Positions 5,282 to 44,642 of a stretch of DNA of 64,000 nt are shown piece after piece (within the stretch, counting starts at the first letter, position 1; each line of letters opens with the position of its first letter). The DNA is taken from positions 76,738-140,737 of the forward strand of contig JAISAB010000002.1 in assembly GCA_031266915.1 (NCBI GenBank), written 5' to 3'. A program made the position numbers and the translations under genes. This stretch comes from Rickettsiales bacterium (lineage in GTDB: Bacteria > Pseudomonadota > Alphaproteobacteria > Rs-D84). Below the pieces are notes generated by a model, which had not been told where the DNA came from, did not search any database, and worked only from the letters and a program-made list of their open reading frames with translations.

Positions 5282-5662
5282 ATGAAAAATACGAATCATG
5301 AATTACTGGCCGCGACCCGCGAATTTACCCTGGCGGTGGCCAACCTGGCCGCGGCCGCGATGTCCGGCAATCCGGCGATGTCGATGGCGGATGCTGTGCG
5401 GCAGGCGACCGATTCCCTGCGCCGCGCGTCGGTGACGCCCGCCCGGATAAAAGAATCGGTCAGGCCCGATAAGATTCAGTGCTTGGAGGACGAAACCTGG
5501 CACATCATGCTGCGTCGGTATATAAAGCGAAAATTCAACTTGACGCCCGAACAGTATCGCAAGAAATGGGGCCTGGCGGACGATTATCCTTTCGTTGCGC
5601 CGAACTATTCGAAGATGCGTTCGAAAATCGCCAAGAAAACAGGACTTGGAAAGGGGAAATGA
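5282..5662 (+). CDS. mucR: MucR/Ros family transcriptional regulator
   Basis: The C-terminal ...YIKRKFNLTPEQYRKKWGLADDYPFVAPNYSKMRSKIAKK matches the Ros/MucR DNA-binding domain signature (HGLTPeeYRekWgLp.DYPmVAPnY). The zinc ligands are partly degenerate. This family is specific to Alphaproteobacteria. Confidence 0.8.
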   Translation: MKNTNHELLAATREFTLAVANLAAAAMSGNPAMSMADAVRQATDSLRRASVTPARIKESVRPDKIQCLEDETWHIMLRRYIKRKFNLTPEQYRKKWGLADDYPFVAPNYSKMRSKIAKKTGLGKGK

Positions 5663-5665
5663 GCC

Positions 5666-7555
5666 ATGATTAAGAAAACCGTTAGGAAAGCCAGGAATTA
5701 TTTCGACCAATCGAAGACGGTCAAAAAGCTGGGCGCGGGATTTGAAAAAATTCCATCCGGTCTGGGCCGTGCGCGCAGAAAACTGGCGCGCGCGGACGCG
5801 AAAACCTGGTACGGAAAAACGGGAAAATGGACGGGCGCCGGTTTGCTGCTGGCGCTGCAGGCCGCGGCAAAAGTCGTCAAAATTATGGGCGTGGACAATC
5901 TGGTGCTGCGCGCGGTCGAGATTGAGTTCGCGACAATCAAACCCGGGAAAAATAAAAAAGGCAACGACAAGAAGTTCGCCACGTTTATAAAAAAACATCC
6001 GTGGATTCCGGCCTATCTGACAAACTATATGATTATGGCGTCATTTTTGTTCGGCGCCAACGTCGGCGGCATACGCGACGGCGCCGTCGACGGGATAAAA
6101 TCCGGCGTGGAAAGCCTGAAAGACTATTTTTCAAAGGACAAGGAAAGCGGAGAAAAAATAGACATTTCAACCATGAAAATGACCGGCGCCCAGTGGTGCA
6201 AAACGGATTTTGTGAACGCGCTGTGCGTGGCGATTCCGCTGGTGTTCGAAGAATGCTATACGACCGCAAAGCTGACATCTGAACGCGGCGGCGTATATAA
6301 CATCGGATATTGCATGACCCGTATGCCCGCGAATAAAAGCAAACCGTACGGCAAATGGCGCAAGGTCAGAAAAGGGGATACCTGTACCGAGGAACAAGCG
6401 GCCCTGTGGGCGGCCGTTTACAGTCAGAAAAATATTTTCCCGACTATCAGCGAGAAACTGACCGTCGAAGTGTCCTGCGGAATGATTTTGGCGCTGGCGG
6501 ACTTGTCTTATAATGCCGGCGCATTGGGTGTCATGATTGCGCGTTTGAACGACGGCTGGACCGAAGAACGTGTCCTGAACAGGATGTTGGAATACCGATA
6601 TGCGAAAATAAAAAACGAAAAAACAGGCAAAATGGTTCCCATAATTTTGGACGGTCTGATAGTCCGCCGCTGGTGGGATTATGCGGCCGGCCATAATAAA
6701 TTGGATTACGAAAAACTGTTGGACTGCAATCTGACGGCCGTATCGCAAATAGGCAGCGGCAACCTTTATTCGGATAAAGCAAAATACAAACCAATCATAA
6801 CCGATAAAAAAGTCGAACAGGTTTTAACCGCAAGCGTCCCGGGCAAACCAAGCGTCCGCGATATATTCAGCCGAAGCGAAACCGGCAGAAAATACATCGC
6901 GTCGATAGAAAATGCCGATGTCAGCATAGCAAAGACAGCCGAACCGGTTGAGGCAATAGAACAGGATTCGGAAAGCTATCTGGTCAATAATATCGCGTTC
7001 GAGGCGCAGACGGCTTTTGACAAAGGGCACTATAAAATCGCTGCGGACAAATTCAGGAAAATGATTGAACTGGTCCCGGACGCGTATGATTCTTACAATG
7101 ATTTGATATTCACGTTATATAAACTTGGAAATTACGACGAAGGCTTGAAATACGCCAGAATACTGATAGACCTGGGCCACGCCAATGATGTCAGCGAGGA
7201 TAAAATGTTCGGCTCGGCTTATTTTAACGCCGGTCTTTGCCGCGAAGCCAAGGGCGAATTGGAAAAGGCGAGGGCGAATTACGAGACCGCATCGCTTAGA
7301 ATGCCGAACAATATATTCGTAAAAAATGCCTTGGACAGAATTGATAAAAAGATAAAAGAACAAAACGATAAGAAACGTAAAAGCGGCAACAGCGGCAAGA
7401 AAAAAAGCGCTGGGGCGACAACGTCGGCAAAGTCTAAATTCAATCGTGCGTCTTCTAAAATAAAGAACGTGGTCGCAGAGGTCAAACCTGAAAAGGGCAG
7501 CACGTTCGATGCGACGTATTTTTTCATAAACCCCTACGATAATGGCATGGCGTGA
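5666..7555 (+). CDS. membrane-anchored GH24 (phage-type) lysozyme-like domain protein with C-terminal TPR repeats and Lys-rich tail
   Basis: The segment FEECYTTAKLTSERGGVYNIGYCMT...GDTCTEEQAALW...ILALADLSYNAGALG...GLIVRRWWDYAAG aligns motif by motif with T4/lambda lysozyme (catalytic E..D/T-EG-Y.IG.GH, TEEQA, the helix-loop FNvG, GL..RR..E). There is a hydrophobic N-proximal segment (WTGAGLLLALQAAAKVVKIMG). The C-terminal region contains TPR-like repeats (YNDLIFTLYKLGNYDEGLKYA... ELEKARANYETA). Confidence 0.65.
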   Translation: MIKKTVRKARNYFDQSKTVKKLGAGFEKIPSGLGRARRKLARADAKTWYGKTGKWTGAGLLLALQAAAKVVKIMGVDNLVLRAVEIEFATIKPGKNKKGNDKKFATFIKKHPWIPAYLTNYMIMASFLFGANVGGIRDGAVDGIKSGVESLKDYFSKDKESGEKIDISTMKMTGAQWCKTDFVNALCVAIPLVFEECYTTAKLTSERGGVYNIGYCMTRMPANKSKPYGKWRKVRKGDTCTEEQAALWAAVYSQKNIFPTISEKLTVEVSCGMILALADLSYNAGALGVMIARLNDGWTEERVLNRMLEYRYAKIKNEKTGKMVPIILDGLIVRRWWDYAAGHNKLDYEKLLDCNLTAVSQIGSGNLYSDKAKYKPIITDKKVEQVLTASVPGKPSVRDIFSRSETGRKYIASIENADVSIAKTAEPVEAIEQDSESYLVNNIAFEAQTAFDKGHYKIAADKFRKMIELVPDAYDSYNDLIFTLYKLGNYDEGLKYARILIDLGHANDVSEDKMFGSAYFNAGLCREAKGELEKARANYETASLRMPNNIFVKNALDRIDKKIKEQNDKKRKSGNSGKKKSAGATTSAKSKFNRASSKIKNVVAEVKPEKGSTFDATYFFINPYDNGMA

Positions 7556-21182: not shown

Positions 21183-21564
21183 GTCAACCCAACTTGCAAA
21201 ATTATTTGGCTTTAACAGATGCAGCGTTTGTACACTATGCTGCCCCGAACGCGCACAGTCGGCAAAGTTTATAAAACCGTTCGAATTTTTCCTGAATTTA
21301 TGATGGATCCAAACATTTTCCTTGTATCAGAACTTTGCGCGTATTATGATACAAGCGTCGGCGGGTGTTCCGCCGGCGGGGTATCGAAACCTCCATAAGA
21401 CGCGCGCATGGGCAGTACTGTGCGATGTTCTCCAATCATTTGGTTGGAGGGCTGGTGGAATAAGGCATTACGCTGAATACGCCGCACTATATCTTATGTA
21501 GTTTCGAACCTCCAACCACCTTTTTCGGGTGGTTTTTCATTCGCTGAAAAAAAAGGAGGTTGGA

Positions 21565-22164
21565 ATGAGAAAATTAATGTTTCTTGTTGTTTCGTTTCTG
21601 GTTGTTTTGTCTCTGGCGCCGAGATTGTTCGCCGCCAGTTGCAGCGGCAGCTGCTGCGACAGCGGCAATGTATTGGGAGGTTCTAACATAATGGATTATT
21701 GCATTGGCTCCAGCGTTAGATTTATTGGGTGTTACGACACATATATAGTTTATACATGCGATGCGTGCATATCCGGCTACTATACCAGGTACAAAATCGA
21801 TAGTGATTATCCTGGCGAAATATATGGATGCCATTATGACCCGCCAGCATGCGGCACATGCAACGAAACGGTCACCGACTGGGTAAATGTAGACTCGAGC
21901 CGCCAAAGGCGGACCGTCACCAAAACATGCGCCAGCGGATGCACTTGTACCAATTGCAGCGGCACTGTCACGGAATACCAATGCGGCGCCAATTATTACG
22001 GCACCGCGACCAACAACAGCACCAGTTGTACCAGTTGCCTGAACAACGGGAAGAAAGCAGTGGGCAACGGCGATATAACGGACTGCTATATTCCGGCCGG
22101 TCAGGAAATCAGCGACGACACGGGCAAATTTACATTTGATCAGGACTGCCATTATTCGAAATGA
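21565..22164 (+). CDS. cysteine-rich secreted protein
   Basis: Signal peptide MRKLMFLVVSFLVVLSLAPRLFAA, followed by ~30 Cys in 175 aa (CSGSCCDSG, CTCTNCSG). The RBS is aaggaggt. Confidence 0.6.
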   Translation: MRKLMFLVVSFLVVLSLAPRLFAASCSGSCCDSGNVLGGSNIMDYCIGSSVRFIGCYDTYIVYTCDACISGYYTRYKIDSDYPGEIYGCHYDPPACGTCNETVTDWVNVDSSRQRRTVTKTCASGCTCTNCSGTVTEYQCGANYYGTATNNSTSCTSCLNNGKKAVGNGDITDCYIPAGQEISDDTGKFTFDQDCHYSK

Positions 22165-36369: not shown

Positions 36370-36440
36370 ACCGATATTTAGACACTAGTGACTGAAAAAA
36401 GTATGTTGTTTTTTGTTTGAAAACCTGCTAAAATGCGTAA

Positions 36441-36698
36441 CGAATCCATTGGGAATGGGTTCGGGGTCTCAAAAGCCCATAGATAAACGGCGATGTAAAA
36501 ATCGTTGTATCCCGCACAATAAAATCGCGGGCGAAAGCCCGATTTTTTTATTGAATCCTCGCCAGTTGGTCGGGGAAGCTGCCGGTATATAAAACAGCCT
36601 CGGCGCCATTTATGGCGACGGGCGAAAACTGGCGGGGTCATTTTTATCTATGATTTTTGAACTCCCCGACCGCCAATTCCCATGGCGGTCTTTTTATT
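36441..36698 (+). ncRNA. structured ~255-nt 5' leader with antiterminator/terminator alternative; candidate riboswitch or attenuator L1, homologous to 43325-43580
   Basis: A sigma70-like promoter (TTGTTT-17-TAAAAT, ~36406-36434) precedes it. The 5' block gaatccattgggaatgggttcggggtctcaaaagcccatagataaacggc is conserved. ggtcgggga (36578-) is complementary to tccccgacc, which overlaps the 5' arm of the terminator gaccgcca-N7-tggcggtc plus tttttatt. The terminator ends at the ATG of the downstream gene. Confidence 0.5.
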
Positions 36699-37154
36699 AT
36701 GAAAAAATGCCTGTGTATATTTTTATCGATTATATTTGTTGCGCCATCGCCGGCGGCAACATCGCGCGGTCGCGCAAATTACAATGTTGTCCAAAATCCG
36801 CGCGCAACGGCAACGAATATTCAATCCGCGCCTGTGTCGCAGGCGCCTGAATCGGAAACTATTGAACCGCAGAAAACAATCGCTGATATTGAAGATGCGG
36901 CTGTGTCCGCGGCATCTGAAGATAATTCGTCGCAGATTTTGGAATTAAACGCCGCTATTCGTGAACTGGAAGACGAAATGTTCAAAATGGATTCCGAATT
37001 GCGTCGTTGCGACCGCATGCGCCGCGACTGGCGCACGGCGACAATTATCGGCGGAATCGGCGTCGTTGGAACCGCCACCGGGGCGATTATTCAGGCAGCG
37101 CAAATATCCAAACAGAAAAAAGAAAATACAAAAACGGATGCGCCCCAGGAATGA
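36699..37154 (+). CDS. secreted coiled-coil protein with C-terminal hydrophobic anchor (paralog A)
   Basis: The signal peptide MKKCLCIFLSIIFVAPSPAA is followed by an acidic region, a coiled-coil (LELNAAIRELEDEMFKMDSELRRCDRMRR) and a Gly-zipper TM (TIIGGIGVVGTATGAIIQAA). Confidence 0.55.
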   Translation: MKKCLCIFLSIIFVAPSPAATSRGRANYNVVQNPRATATNIQSAPVSQAPESETIEPQKTIADIEDAAVSAASEDNSSQILELNAAIRELEDEMFKMDSELRRCDRMRRDWRTATIIGGIGVVGTATGAIIQAAQISKQKKENTKTDAPQE

Positions 37155-41423: not shown

Positions 41424-42971
41424 TTATCGTATCGTATGATAAGTATTTCCCGAATAGTTGACATTTATCGCATTGCTGGCCGAACCATTGCCCAGGCTGG
41501 CGTAGCATACGGTTCCTGATGCGCTTTTTATATTTATGGATGGAATTGTGTTCTTGACAGCGTACAGAGGAATGATAAGACTTCCCGCGCGCAGGGTGGC
41601 GAATCCTGCGGCGCACATCTGCGCGCACCCACCGGCGTCCGTCTGCGAATACCCTGAATCGCAATCCCACGGGCAATTATTTCCGGTCACGCCTGCGCTG
41701 TTGCTATAACTGGAATTTGCCGGCTTGTTGGTGCAGTTGTTGCACGATGTCTGACCGGTCAGATTCTGATAGGTTCCCGCGGCGCACGCATCGCAGGAAT
41801 AGTGCCCGCTGCCGCCGGTATCGTATATCACCGTTCCGTCGTAAAGCGCCTCGCTGCCCGATACGCCGTAATGACCCGCAGGGCACGGAACGCACGAGTT
41901 AAGAAAGTCGGGGCCTTCTGGAATATCGACGGTGTAATATCCGCTGGCGCATTCGCCCCAATATCTCTTCTGGCAATTGTCGAAATTACTGCCGCCCCAC
42001 CAGCAAGTGCCGGATATGGAACTTTGTTCCGTCCAAAAGCCCGTTCCGGACCAATACCAGAAATTTCCCTTCGTATGGCAGTCGGTCGAATCATCAGAGC
42101 CAGAATCGGATGTGACTTTTGTGCTATTAGCCGCATGTCCCGGTATAAGGTCCTGACATGAATATCTGGCGGAACCATAAGAAATACCAGGACAGTAATA
42201 GCCTTGCTCGCACATGACACATTGCCCGTCAGACAGATAATATCCTTTGTCGCAGCTGACCGCGCAACCGGACGTCGCGCCCCAGGTATAGCACCCGCTG
42301 ACCCCGTTCTTGGTCGCGTTGCATGTCTGGGTGCCGTTGATTGTTCCGTTTGCAACGCTGCCGCAGCTGGCTGTCTGCGAAGTGTTGTACGTGCAGTCGC
42401 TGGTGCATGTGGCGACAGCGGGGCACGCGGTTCCGCCTGCGCAGGTGTATCCGCTGCCGTAATCCGAGCATGGCCGGCACAGCCTGGCATCCGAATTTGG
42501 GGTGCATATTGTCTGACTTGGGCTGGGCGCCATGTAGTATCCGGCTTCGCAAGTCTGCGGCACGCAAGCCCCCCAATCGTCGCCATAGGAACAGTTGTTG
42601 AAGCCGTAGTAGCTGCTGCAGTCGCCGACCAGGGTGATGCGGGATTGCTTTCCGACGCCGTTGGCTATCGCGCAGTTCTGCGATGGCGCCAAATTATCAC
42701 AACTGCATGTGTTGACGGCGCCTGGAACGCATCCTGCATTTTCTGGCCAGTCGCATATTTCCAGAGACCAATTCCAAAAAAGACCATCGGGGCAACTTAT
42801 TCTTTGATTAACAAAAGCCCCGCAAATATAAAGCGACTGACAGTCGTTGAAATCGGGAGTATAAACGGGATTTTCATCCACAAAAAACTTCTCCGAGCAG
42901 GCAGGCACTCCATAGGCCATATTGGTCGCGCATTGCACGCAAAATATGATGATAAATATAAATTTTCTCAA
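41424..42971 (-). CDS. large cysteine-rich secreted protein with Ephrin-receptor-like / VSP-like CxxC...GxY repeats
   Basis: It has a TTG start and the signal peptide MRKFIFIIIFCVQCATNMA. It contains ~70 Cys with repeated units (CVPCPAGHYGVSG; CDACAAGTYQNLTGQTSCNNC; CRPCSDYGSGYTCAGGTAC) that resemble eukaryotic GCC2/GCC3 (Ephrin-receptor-like) or Giardia VSP repeats. The antisense ORFs here are GC artefacts. Confidence 0.6.
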   Translation of the reverse strand: MRKFIFIIIFCVQCATNMAYGVPACSEKFFVDENPVYTPDFNDCQSLYICGAFVNQRISCPDGLFWNWSLEICDWPENAGCVPGAVNTCSCDNLAPSQNCAIANGVGKQSRITLVGDCSSYYGFNNCSYGDDWGACVPQTCEAGYYMAPSPSQTICTPNSDARLCRPCSDYGSGYTCAGGTACPAVATCTSDCTYNTSQTASCGSVANGTINGTQTCNATKNGVSGCYTWGATSGCAVSCDKGYYLSDGQCVMCEQGYYCPGISYGSARYSCQDLIPGHAANSTKVTSDSGSDDSTDCHTKGNFWYWSGTGFWTEQSSISGTCWWGGSNFDNCQKRYWGECASGYYTVDIPEGPDFLNSCVPCPAGHYGVSGSEALYDGTVIYDTGGSGHYSCDACAAGTYQNLTGQTSCNNCTNKPANSSYSNSAGVTGNNCPWDCDSGYSQTDAGGCAQMCAAGFATLRAGSLIIPLYAVKNTIPSINIKSASGTVCYASLGNGSASNAINVNYSGNTYHTIR

Positions 42972-43081: not shown

Positions 43082-43324
43082 CGTTTGAATCAGGCATGGC
43101 AATATGCTTATTTACGTTTTGAATTATCTCGTATATTCATCTTTCTGTCAATGAAAAAAATGGCGTCTTTAGATATTTATATTCGGATTGTATTTCTGCA
43201 GGAGTATGTTTTGCAATCCTGGCGCGGCGAAACCATCACGAGCGGTGGTTATAAAATAGAGCATGGCCATAAAAATCAATTAATTTTTCTTTGAAAAAAT
43301 TTAGTTTTAGTTTACAATACATGT

Positions 43325-43580
43325 GAATCCAAAGGGATTTGGGTTCGGGGCCTTCAAAAAGCCCATATAAGAACGGCATTGTAAATGTCGAAATCCGCAT
43401 GATAAGACACGGCGCGGATGCGCCTTTTGTTTTATCATGAATGCCCCGCAAAGGTCGGGGGGCCGCCGGTTATGCAACAGGGTTATCCCAAAGGCCAGCG
43501 GGGTCATTTTCTTATATGATTTTTTGAACTCCCCGACCGCCATTTTCTTGGCGGTTTTTTATATAAAAAAAGGAAATCAT
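43325..43580 (+). ncRNA. structured ~255-nt 5' leader with antiterminator/terminator alternative, L2, homologous to 36441-36698
   Basis: A promoter TTGAAA-16-TACAAT (43291-43318) precedes it. The conserved 5' block is gaatccaaagggatttgggttcggggccttcaaaaagcccatataagaacggc. ggtcgggg (43455-) is complementary to ccccgacc, which overlaps the terminator gaccgcca-ttttctt-ggcggt plus tttttt (43533-43562). The RBS aaaggaaa and the ATG follow. Confidence 0.5.
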
Positions 43581-44642
43581 ATGAAAAAAACAATCCGCAT
43601 GTTATTCTTCCTGGCATGCGTCTTTTGCGCGCTGGACGCGCGCGCCGGATGCAAAGGCACCGAATGGACGTACAAGCGGAACAATCACGGCAACAACGGC
43701 AACGCCATAGGATGTGACTGCAGCGAGAAATCCAGCGGATACCGAATATACGAGCGCGGATACAACTCTAAAGCGTTTGTTGACGGCAACAAGACCAGAT
43801 GCAACTTTCCAAATCGCAGCTATTGCCATGATACCAGCGGCGCCCGCGACACGTGGGAGAACTGTACCGGAAAAATCATATATTCCGGAACTCCGTCAAG
43901 CCATGATTCCAGCGGTCTGGGGCATCAGATTCCGGCGGACGTTCTTTTCGAAGTGTCGTCGCTGCCGCTGAACAGCACGGCACGGCCGCACCTAAATGAC
44001 GGCGGCGACGAGAGCAACTGCAAACAGGACGGCAAAAATGGCGAGTGCGGATGGGTCGCATTTTGCAACAGCGGATTCGAATGGAATTCGACACACAAAA
44101 AGTGCGTTTGCCCCGCTGGCCGGGTCTCGTCTCCGGATGGCAAATCGTGCGTGACAATCGCCGAATGCGAATCGGATTCCAGCTATGAGGCAACGGACGG
44201 CGCCTGCATCACGTCGAAATGGTGCAGCCCGGAATGGAGGACCAGCTTCGACAACGCGCAACACGCGACGAAACTCGTCAACAACTGCGACGAATTCCGA
44301 TGCATAGACGGATACGGATTCAAATCGGCGTCGGACAAGTCCTGTGTGCCGGCCGAGGGCGACAAGTTCGGCGGCCAATACCCTGATTCGACAACCGGGA
44401 TTATGAAAAATTGCATGAAAACGCAAAAAGTGAGAATAACCAAAAGCGGCGATACTTCGGAATATTCGTGCGCAGAGGCCGATTATAAGGCGTCCGACGA
44501 CGAAATGAAGAAATGCTTTCGCTGCGAGGAAACCGAAGATTTCAAAAATTGCATAAAATTCCAAGGCAAAGACGGGATAAACGGAGTTTTGCTGAAATGT
44601 GCGAAATGTATGGAGTTAGACGCGATGCCGTGCTGGGAATAA
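43581..44642 (+). CDS. cysteine-rich secreted protein
   Basis: Signal peptide MKKTIRMLFFLACVFCALDARA, then ~40 Cys in 330 aa with EGF/TNFR-like spacing (CVCPAG, CNSGFEWNSTHKKC). Confidence 0.6.
   Translation: MKKTIRMLFFLACVFCALDARAGCKGTEWTYKRNNHGNNGNAIGCDCSEKSSGYRIYERGYNSKAFVDGNKTRCNFPNRSYCHDTSGARDTWENCTGKIIYSGTPSSHDSSGLGHQIPADVLFEVSSLPLNSTARPHLNDGGDESNCKQDGKNGECGWVAFCNSGFEWNSTHKKCVCPAGRVSSPDGKSCVTIAECESDSSYEATDGACITSKWCSPEWRTSFDNAQHATKLVNNCDEFRCIDGYGFKSASDKSCVPAEGDKFGGQYPDSTTGIMKNCMKTQKVRITKSGDTSEYSCAEADYKASDDEMKKCFRCEETEDFKNCIKFQGKDGINGVLLKCAKCMELDAMPCWE

Follow-up and report, generated by a model that had tools for sequence, protein, structure and literature searches.

The cyclic di-GMP-I (GEMM-I) RNAs occur in many copies per genome 5' of adhesins, pili, secreted proteins and glycosyltransferases, and their GNRA loop docks on a receptor helix. 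sRNA-Xcc1 is a small RNA (sRNA) of Xanthomonas that lies 5' of symE, BRO or ORF6N genes within integron cassettes and prophages (bioRxiv 10.1101/2025.06.18.660453; 10.1101/2020.03.17.996009) and has been described as trans-acting (PMC2996969; bioRxiv 10.1101/2025.06.18.660453). The element described here is a structured leader of about 190-260 nucleotides (nt) that recurs in a 64,000-nt stretch of DNA from a Rickettsiales bacterium (GenBank assembly GCA_031266915.1, contig JAISAB010000002.1, positions 76,738 to 140,737 of the forward strand), hereafter the window. Each of its two well-preserved copies is a promoter-proximal structured RNA with an intrinsic terminator at its end and a gene for a signal-peptide protein just 3'.

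Each copy is likely to be the 5' leader of the downstream mRNA, acting in cis as a transcription-attenuation switch, and the family is probably a genuine and new cis-regulatory switch RNA, which sequence comparison makes a candidate orphan riboswitch or attenuator. An earlier sequence-only reading of the window had proposed a structured leader in which an antiterminator competes with a terminator, and that proposal is supported. Its picture of the leader was correct for these two elements and missed the P2 hairpin, the two long-range pairings, the C1 strand, the third copy and the kinship with sRNA-Xcc1, all of which are set out here.

Paralogous leaders in the window

Regions 36441-36698 (copy 1) and 43325-43562 (copy 2) had been recognized as having a common architecture, and they are indeed paralogous, with 76% column identity over ~340 alignment columns and with a 5' block and the 3' block TTTTTGAACTCCCCGACCGCC in common. 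A 23-mer around CCCCGACC occurs only at these two sites in the window, against 0 expected by chance, and folding compared with shuffled controls gave z = -5.6 for copy 1 and z = -6.8 for copy 2. Two copies had been counted; there are three, the diverged one lying at ~21356-21539. The signal-peptide-like N-termini noted for both downstream products were confirmed. Strong sigma70-like promoters had been ascribed to both copies, which held for copy 2 and not for copy 1, where the site was missed by the consensus scan and 'strong' was an overstatement.

Homologs were collected by scanning species-representative genomes with the pattern GGTCGGGGAGTTCA-N(55-85)-CCCCRACC. The scan returned 99 loci, comprising ~85 true homologs and ~15 G+C-rich chance matches inside coding regions.

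Architecture and covariation

The elements follow one another from 5' to 3' in the order P1, P2, J2/3, P3, P4 (variable), C1, G2, Pa, Pb, PK1b, C2 and terminator, and they are located in copies 1 and 2 as follows.

36406-36434 (+): copy 1 promoter-like site TTGTTT-17-TAAAAT, read from the sequence; -35 hexamer 3/6, below the threshold of the consensus scan
36442-36462 (+): copy 1 P1 hairpin (GAAUCCAUU-GGG-AAUGGGUUC); family consensus loop GGGA
36464-36478 (+): copy 1 P2 hairpin (GGGU/GCCC), loop CUCAAAA, with PK1a (UCAAAA) at 36469-36474
36478-36487 (+): copy 1 PK2a, CAUAGAUAAA, partner at 36643-36652
36488-36509 (+): copy 1 P3 hairpin
36517-36553 (+): copy 1 P4, variable extended hairpin whose core (36528-36541) and T-run resemble an internal terminator
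36557-36561 (+): copy 1 C1 (CCUCG), a weak form of the family's AUCCCCGAC, capable of pairing with G2 (anti-antiterminator)
36568-36577 (+): copy 1 G2, GGUCGGGGAA, 5' strand of the antiterminator
36579-36635 (+): copy 1 Pa, its stem (CUGCCGGU/ACUGGCGG) interrupted by the conserved internal loop UAUAAAACAG...AAA and capped by an apical hairpin
36636-36655 (+): copy 1 Pb hairpin (GGUCAU/AUGAUU), its loop carrying PK2b at 36643-36652
36655-36660 (+): copy 1 PK1b, UUUUGA, partner of the P2 loop
36662-36671 (+): copy 1 C2, CUCCCCGACC, 3' strand of the antiterminator; its final 4 nt begin the terminator stem
36668-36698 (+): copy 1 intrinsic terminator (GACCGCCA-loop-UGGCGGUC and U-run), hairpin at 36668-36690
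43291-43318 (+): copy 2 promoter-like site TTGAAA-16-TACAAT, 10/12 in the consensus scan
43325-43452 (+): copy 2 5' domain, with P1 43325-43346, P2 43348-43364 carrying PK1a in its loop, PK2a 43364-43373, P3, P4 and C1 at ~43443-43449
43411-43424 (+): copy 2 terminator-like core of P4
43453-43538 (+): copy 2 domain II, with G2 43453-43462, Pa, Pb, PK2b, PK1b and C2 43529-43538; 84.5 bits with the covariance model R1
43535-43562 (+): copy 2 intrinsic terminator, hairpin at 43535-43556 and then a T-run

In a MAFFT alignment of 58 sequences, P1, P2, P3, Pa and the apical hairpin of Pa covary strongly, with a score of 0.359 against 0.175 for shuffled alignments; 0/500 shuffles reached it, and slid controls gave 0.06-0.11. 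In these sequences two-sided changes were found in 8/9 pairs of P1, where copies 1 and 2 themselves differ by the compensatory AUU/AAU and AAA/UUU, and in 5/7 pairs of P3. All four pairs of P2 covary with 97% of cells paired, and its arms vary as GGAGC/GCUCU, GGGAC/GUCCU and GGUGC/GCAC. In domain II (87 sequences), 96.7% of cells are paired and 21/26 pairs show two-sided changes; the counts are 8/8 for the stem pairs of Pa and 3/3 for its apical pairs, and 4/5 pairs of Pb covary. Homologs with compensatory changes had been named by the sequence-only reading as a test of its proposal, and the ~85 homologs with their strong covariation pass it.

Two long-range pairings are supported as well. An unbiased mutual-information scan ranked first a pair linking the P2 loop with the strand immediately 5' of C2. 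In this pairing, PK1, which is an H-type pseudoknot, the loop UCA-n1-n2-n3 faces n3'-n2'-n1'-UGA with at least 99% pairing at six positions. Position n1 occurs as four pair types (AU 41, UA 16, CG 11, GC 9), and pairing is maintained in the rarer variants UAAGAA/UUCUUA, UAGCAA/UUGCUA, UUCGUC/GACGAA and UCGAAA/UUUCGA. In PK2, the Pb loop of every member has its complement in J2/3, hypervariable as that segment is, with a mean longest Watson-Crick run of 8.4 against 6.0 +/- 0.1 for permuted partners; the copy 2 strands, CAUAUAAGAA/UUCUUAUAUG, differ from those of copy 1. PK2b abuts or overlaps the 3' arm of Pb in 72/77 members, yet both pairings covary, and for this reason PK2 and the Pb stem are probably alternatives, as pseudoknot geometry would suggest.

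Two other pairings were rejected. The plain minimum free energy fold, in which the 5' GGGG pairs with the CCCC of C2 and P2 is open, was not accepted as the conserved fold, given the covariation of P2 and the part that its loop plays in PK1. Pairing of the 5' arm of P2 with C1 was discarded as well, the P2-arm variants (GGAGC and the like) being compensated inside P2 and not in C1.

Two further features of the hairpins were recorded. P3 resembles P4, and GUUAU follows each of the two hairpins. A GGGA (GNRA-type) P1 loop occurs together with the Pa internal loop AUAnAAnA in 44 sequences and a non-GGGA P1 with AUGUnCA in 21, 13 sequences being mixed (the sites in copy 1 are 36451-36454 and 36587-36596); this co-occurrence reflects either a tetraloop-receptor tertiary contact or a lineage effect only.

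Competing helices before the gene

In copies 1 and 2, GGTCGGGG (36568-36575; 43453-43460) is complementary to CCCCGACC (36664-36671; 43531-43538), and the latter overlaps the 5' arm of the terminator hairpin (36668-36690; 43535-43556), with a T-run after each. The sequence-only reading had described this perfect complementarity of a G-rich and a C-rich segment correctly. The three terminators of the window (36668-36690, 43535-43556 and 21514-21534) were detected independently, each as a G+C-rich hairpin followed by a U-run.

G2 (GGUCGGGGAG) and C2 (CUCCCCGACC) were held fixed by the homolog search pattern; hence a covariance model of domain II, R1, was run on all loci. Nine further copies missed by the pattern were recovered in this way, among them copy 3 of the window, matched at 21439-21520 with 28.3 bits (E = 2.6e-5 within the window). 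The elements of copy 3 are as follows.

21356-21378 (+): P1
21379-21392 (+): P2, loop AUCGAA
21430-21437 (+): C1, CUCCAAUC
21442-21450 (+): G2, GGUUGGAGG
21502-21507 (+): PK1b, UUUCGA
21509-21517 (+): C2, CCUCCAACC
21514-21534 (+): terminator hairpin found by terminator detection, followed by a U-run; leader end 21539

In the diverged copies G2 and C2 change jointly, as GGUUGGAGG/CCUCCAACC, UGUCGGGAAG/CUUCCCGACA, GUCGGGUGU/ACGCCCGAC and UGUCGGGGUG/CACCCCGACA, so that the antiterminator is kept there, as the earlier proposal had required. Overall, G2:C2 shows 99.5% pairing, with two-sided changes in 6/10 pairs, all in diverged copies. Copy 3 forms 10 bp between its own G2 and C2 against 4 with the canonical G2. 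The C-rich C1, located 2-12 nt 5' of G2, tracks the changes of G2 in diverged copies: C1:G2 complementarity to the copy's own versus the canonical G2 is 12 versus 7 in copy 3, 9 versus 6 in L045, 11 versus 8 in L038 and 9 versus 7 in L030. The family mean run for C1:G2 is 7.6 against 6.1 when shuffled.

In 60/78 non-redundant members, the GACC of C2 opens a hairpin of at least 5 bp, with 5 or more U within 8 nt after it, and in 63/78 the upstream C1 region is the partner of G2 when folding is constrained to the terminator state. Members without the U-run (Microvirga, Rickettsia-type, L084 and others) retain the hairpin next to a Shine-Dalgarno sequence; in Microvirga, the AACUCCC of C2 is the complement of GGGAGUU, the Shine-Dalgarno region. 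Altogether, three overlapping helices appear to be under selection, with apparently two kinds of expression platform. Two of the features generally expected of a riboswitch are present in these leaders, namely a structured sensor domain supported by covariation and mutually exclusive helices that include a terminator or a Shine-Dalgarno sequence. Inside the leader, P4 forms a terminator-like hairpin in 33/78 homologs, bidirectional in appearance in copies 1 and 2, and no antiterminator was detected for this internal hairpin (3.79 vs 3.27).

Distribution and downstream genes

The true homologs belong almost entirely to Alphaproteobacteria, and several metagenome-assembled genomes (MAGs) carry three or four copies. 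Their hosts include gut and rumen MAGs (Ca. Enterousia, 'Azospirillum sp. 51_20'), Rickettsiales MAGs, Microvirga species and Rickettsia tamurae. Two homologs, L065 and L074, lie in assemblies labelled Muribaculaceae and Bacteroides fragilis; their leaders are of the typical alphaproteobacterial type, and the contigs are, from their sequences, probably mis-binned. A Rhodospirillaceae locus with a homolog (L084) also carries a bona fide suhB/mmgR sRNA at 188-263.

A 17-mer scan of viral contigs yielded one true homolog, L003, in which the conserved blocks are kept and the long-range pairing differs by compensatory changes; two scans of viral contigs with the combined 5' and 3' pattern gave no locus beyond it. 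This homolog (IMG/VR contig of 5.6 kb, ~2010-2250, - strand) stands beside RuvC-like and exonuclease genes and resembles the Rickettsia tamurae copy (L018:2228-2481), including the sequence after the 3' hairpin. The latter copy lies between an ABC transporter gene and gyrA, and sub-threshold WsnRNA46-like palindromic matches were seen on the same locus (L018:1927-2056 and 5647-5775). Full-text literature searched for the G2 and C2 strings returned unrelated primers only, and a search of the riboswitch-candidate literature returned nothing relevant.

Throughout the family, the unit is co-oriented with the downstream gene and lies 5-150 nt before its start, usually without room for another promoter. 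An open reading frame (ORF) of at least 60 aa starts on the same strand within 200 nt in 71/78 non-redundant members, and 28/45 sequences, against 15 expected, have a -10-like hexamer at a distance of 34-37 nt before the P2 loop. Among the 71 downstream proteins 31 Pfam families are represented, more than half of the proteins are without a match, and ~40% look secreted. The families include DNA methylases (4), GmrSD, outer-membrane barrels, OmpA-like proteins, autotransporter and YadA anchors and helix-turn-helix (HTH) proteins, as well as the glycosyltransferase-type families GT2, GT8, GT61, Stealth, LicD and TupA-like. The downstream set is one of accessory, surface and defence genes and not a metabolic pathway; no coherent pathway of the kind a single ligand would serve was found among the 71 proteins. 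Because the downstream genes are diverse, the signal cannot be inferred from them.

In the window, all three copies stand 5' of small secreted, mostly Cys-rich protein genes inserted among housekeeping genes, as follows.

21565-22164 (+): gene 3' of copy 3, 199 aa, signal peptide, Cys-rich, AAGGAGG upstream
36699-37154 (+): gene 3' of copy 1, 151 aa, signal-peptide-like N-terminus, no Pfam match
43581-44642 (+): gene 3' of copy 2, 353 aa, signal peptide, Cys-rich, no Pfam match

In copy 1 the T-run leads straight into the ATG of the gene (36699), with no Shine-Dalgarno sequence, just as had been claimed, and AGGAAA precedes the ATG of the copy 2 gene (43581). Upstream neighbours of copy 1 are lolA, a deaminase gene, tatB and tatC; copy 3 and its gene are flanked by a HlyIII-family gene and thrS. 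A separate 515-aa ORF at 41424-42971 (- strand) carries eukaryote-like CBM_14 (peritrophin-A chitin binding) and ephrin-receptor-like Cys-rich repeats, a composition that would fit an animal- or insect-associated bacterium.

A proposed attenuation mechanism and its alternatives

To the observed sequences, conservation, covariation of all helices, terminator features and gene co-orientation, the proposed mechanism adds a folding order, a switch direction and the existence and nature of a signal, all of which we infer. Transcription would start a few nt before P1. C1 would pair with G2 in a local hairpin, the anti-antiterminator; G2 would alternatively pair with C2 over 10 bp, closing an sRNA-Xcc1-like three-way junction as the antiterminator; and the last 4 nt of C2 with the following GCC... 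would pair with the 3' arm of the terminator. By default, C1:G2 would form first during transcription, leaving C2 free for the terminator, and transcription would stop before the gene. In the ON state, G2 would pass from C1 to C2. The 5' domain would touch the strand preceding C2 through the P2 loop with n'n'UGA (PK1), and J2/3 would pair with the Pb loop (PK2); since these contacts fall just before C2, the 5' domain is read as the sensor that would decide whether the antiterminator forms. The most likely trigger would be a small molecule or second messenger, making the leader an ON riboswitch, followed by a dedicated RNA-binding protein; a riboswitch is favoured because the fold is complex. 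In lineages without the U-run (Microvirga, Rickettsia-type), C2 would instead be set against the Shine-Dalgarno region and translation would be controlled.

Several points weigh against this attenuation mechanism. Its switch direction and folding order are what we infer, and the downstream genes lack a common pathway, unlike those of most metabolite riboswitches. The invariance of G2 and C2 in most members is a product of the collection pattern, and the compensatory evidence for G2, C2 and C1 comes from ~8 diverged copies, aligned by fitting them to the model. A nested energy model prefers the terminator state by ~12 kcal/mol, a figure that says little on equilibrium with pseudoknots not scorable, and the ON/OFF energy difference from constrained folding was set aside as unusable for the same reason. 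In addition, copy 1 lacks a Shine-Dalgarno sequence and its C1 is weak, the extra terminator-like P4 of 33/78 members has no detectable antiterminator of its own and is not explained by the model, and the terminated leader could also serve as a stable small RNA.

RfaH/UpxY/LoaP-type antitermination regulons comprise similar gene sets, and the leader might accordingly be bound by an antiterminator protein, a NusG-type paralog or RNA polymerase itself (put/EAR-like), with the 3' terminator and P4 both read through and a surface, polysaccharide and DNA-modification regulon coordinated. The glycosyltransferases, LicD, Stealth, outer-membrane proteins, autotransporters and DNA methylases resemble such regulons, processive read-through would account for a second terminator-like hairpin without an antiterminator, and the similar P3 and P4 hairpins with their GUUAU could be repeated protein sites. 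Protein-mediated or processive antitermination thus stays viable because of the gene set and the extra P4, at a rather low probability: processive antitermination can do without the conserved, covarying competition of C1:G2, G2:C2 and terminator, no gene for a candidate protein recurs consistently next to the leaders, and known protein-binding leaders have less than the two pseudoknots, the GNRA-type loop and the three-way junction seen here. Control by a leader peptide was rejected, in agreement with the sequence-only reading, which had disfavoured it. No conserved leader peptide was found in the two copies; the ORFs of copy 1 (36413-36592 and others) are without a counterpart in copy 2, and the differences are indels and compensatory changes, not codon conservation.

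Two explanations dispense with regulation of the adjacent gene. If the copies were independent sRNA-Xcc1-like genes, possibly trans-acting, the promoter-to-terminator unit would be the product and the downstream genes mere neighbours; the copies' own promoter-like sites and strong terminators, the resemblance of the 3' half to an RNA described as trans-acting (PMC2996969; bioRxiv 10.1101/2025.06.18.660453) and the lack of space for a Shine-Dalgarno sequence in copy 1 would all agree with this. A miniature mobile element or repeated promoter cassette (Correia or RPE-like) without selected RNA function would in turn agree with the many copies per genome in unrelated intergenic regions between housekeeping genes, the inverted repeats and the copy on a viral contig. 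The former is considered unlikely and the latter very improbable because orientation is invariant, the terminator overlaps a conserved alternative helix and evolution is compensatory. For the sRNA gene, the position 5-150 nt before a gene start usually leaves no space for a second promoter, members without the U-run retain the hairpin beside the Shine-Dalgarno sequence, and a genuine Xcc1 example likewise lies directly on a gene's ribosome-binding site. For the mobile element, copies within a genome are diverged (76% identity, and far less for copy 3) with helices kept by compensatory changes, and BLASTN of copy 1 against plasmid and phage collections gave no match. Miniature inverted-repeat transposable, Correia or RPE-like elements would be expected as near-identical copies in either orientation, with terminal repeats and target duplications; the copies here are diverged and always oriented with the downstream gene. 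DNA inversion between the inverted repeats G2 and C2 was also rejected, the inner segment being opposite in 0/78 members.

Implications

If the attenuation switch is real, it offers a testable handle on the expression of surface proteins, glycans and DNA-modification genes in uncultured gut- and insect-associated Alphaproteobacteria. In Ca. Enterousia, RF32-like and Rickettsiales lineages, almost no regulation of such genes is known, and the switch may decide their expression. A large pseudoknotted orphan leader would also join the few structured RNAs that are widespread and have no known signal, and the cultivable hosts in the family (Microvirga spp.) make reporter and ligand screens feasible. 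Furthermore, sRNA-Xcc1, annotated as trans-acting in many plant-pathogen and prophage genomes, is suggested to be the core of a cis-acting regulatory element. A bolder proposal, put forward tentatively and rated less likely than not, is a new class of riboswitch whose 5' sensor domain would clamp an sRNA-Xcc1-like three-way junction by way of two pseudoknots. It would sense a global signal (for example a second messenger or host-derived metabolite) and coordinate a surface-protein, surface-sugar and DNA-modification/restriction regulon in host-associated Alphaproteobacteria, with Xcc1 as its minimal cis version.

Comparison with known RNAs

When the whole window was compared with Rfam, the gathering score was reached by two tRNAs only and by no riboswitch, T-box or cis-regulatory family; E-value-level scans of both leaders returned sRNA-Xcc1 (RF02221) and otherwise chance-level matches. 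The sequence-only reading saw no T-box and no known riboswitch aptamer in the leaders, and this is upheld; some likeness to a catalogued RNA does exist in the 3' half, which matches sRNA-Xcc1 below threshold (40.0 bits in copy 1 and 37.4 bits in copy 2, gathering score 53). None of 18 homolog loci reached the gathering score of any Rfam family, sRNA-Xcc1 included, and the three homologs tested at E-value level against sRNA-Xcc1 scored 36.3-43.2 bits, again below 53. A genuine Xcc1 on the P. aeruginosa plasmid NZ_CP093017.1 (L004) scores 72.6 bits with the same family, and R1 finds it (L004:1494-1575) on the right strand and at full length with a weak 21.5 bits (E = 0.02 in 1.5 Mb).

The half from G2 to C2 aligns end to end with model positions 1-87 of sRNA-Xcc1. 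Both have a closing helix GUCGGG(G)AG/CUCC(C)CGAC around two hairpins, the first with an AUA(C/A)AA internal loop and a small apical hairpin, and UUnnUGA before the closing strand; both occur in multiple copies 5' of accessory genes. Because the architecture is the same and sub-threshold scores were obtained in both directions, the 3' domain is, at the level of sequence and predicted structure, very probably a distant relative of sRNA-Xcc1. The leader family differs in its extra 5' domain of ~100-130 nt (P1-P4, C1), which pairs with the second-hairpin loop and the junction strand, in mostly ending in an intrinsic terminator, and in being alphaproteobacterial, whereas Xcc1 occurs in Xanthomonas and other Proteobacteria.

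In the genuine Xcc1 of L004, the loop of the second hairpin, CCTCTGCTTGG (1544-1554), is an 11-nt exact reverse complement of the Shine-Dalgarno region at 1599-1609, and a BRO-family gene starts 9 nt after that region. This one example suggests that Xcc1 may itself be a cis-regulator of the downstream BRO-family gene. In copy 2 of the window, the 3' arm of Pb, AUAUGAUUU (43515-43523), is complementary to AAAUCAUAU (43575-43583), which spans the spacer and the downstream start codon. Across the family, the Pb region is only marginally more complementary to the downstream start region than expected by chance (6.33 vs 5.91 +/- 0.11), and a pairing of the kind seen in genuine Xcc1 was for that reason not adopted for the leaders.

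The P1/P7 c4 antisense RNA offers a further parallel, in that the P2 loop and J2/3 each have a complement farther 3' in their own transcript, in the loop and junction segments of a folded domain. The partners in the leader family lie upstream and are not ribosome-binding sites, and there is no match to the Rfam C4 model; in genuine Xcc1, the complementary partner is the ribosome-binding site. With c-di-GMP-I (GEMM-I) the family has in common a similar gene set and the co-occurrence of the P1 GGGA loop with a particular Pa internal loop, but it has no sequence or structure match to the GEMM models and no tie to cyclic dinucleotides.

Compared with known transcriptional riboswitches and T-box leaders, the family matches no aptamer or T-box model and precedes heterogeneous genes. 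Nevertheless, it has the layout of terminator/antiterminator riboswitches and of attenuators with an anti-antiterminator (such as the T-box), namely a promoter-proximal leader, exclusive helices and a terminator just 5' of the gene. As in T-box-type and transcriptional riboswitch leaders, a long-range loop-to-strand pseudoknot connects the sensor to the expression platform, and an apparent translational platform occurs in other lineages. Relative to most riboswitch classes the leader is larger, at 190-260 nt, and is held together by two long-range pairings.

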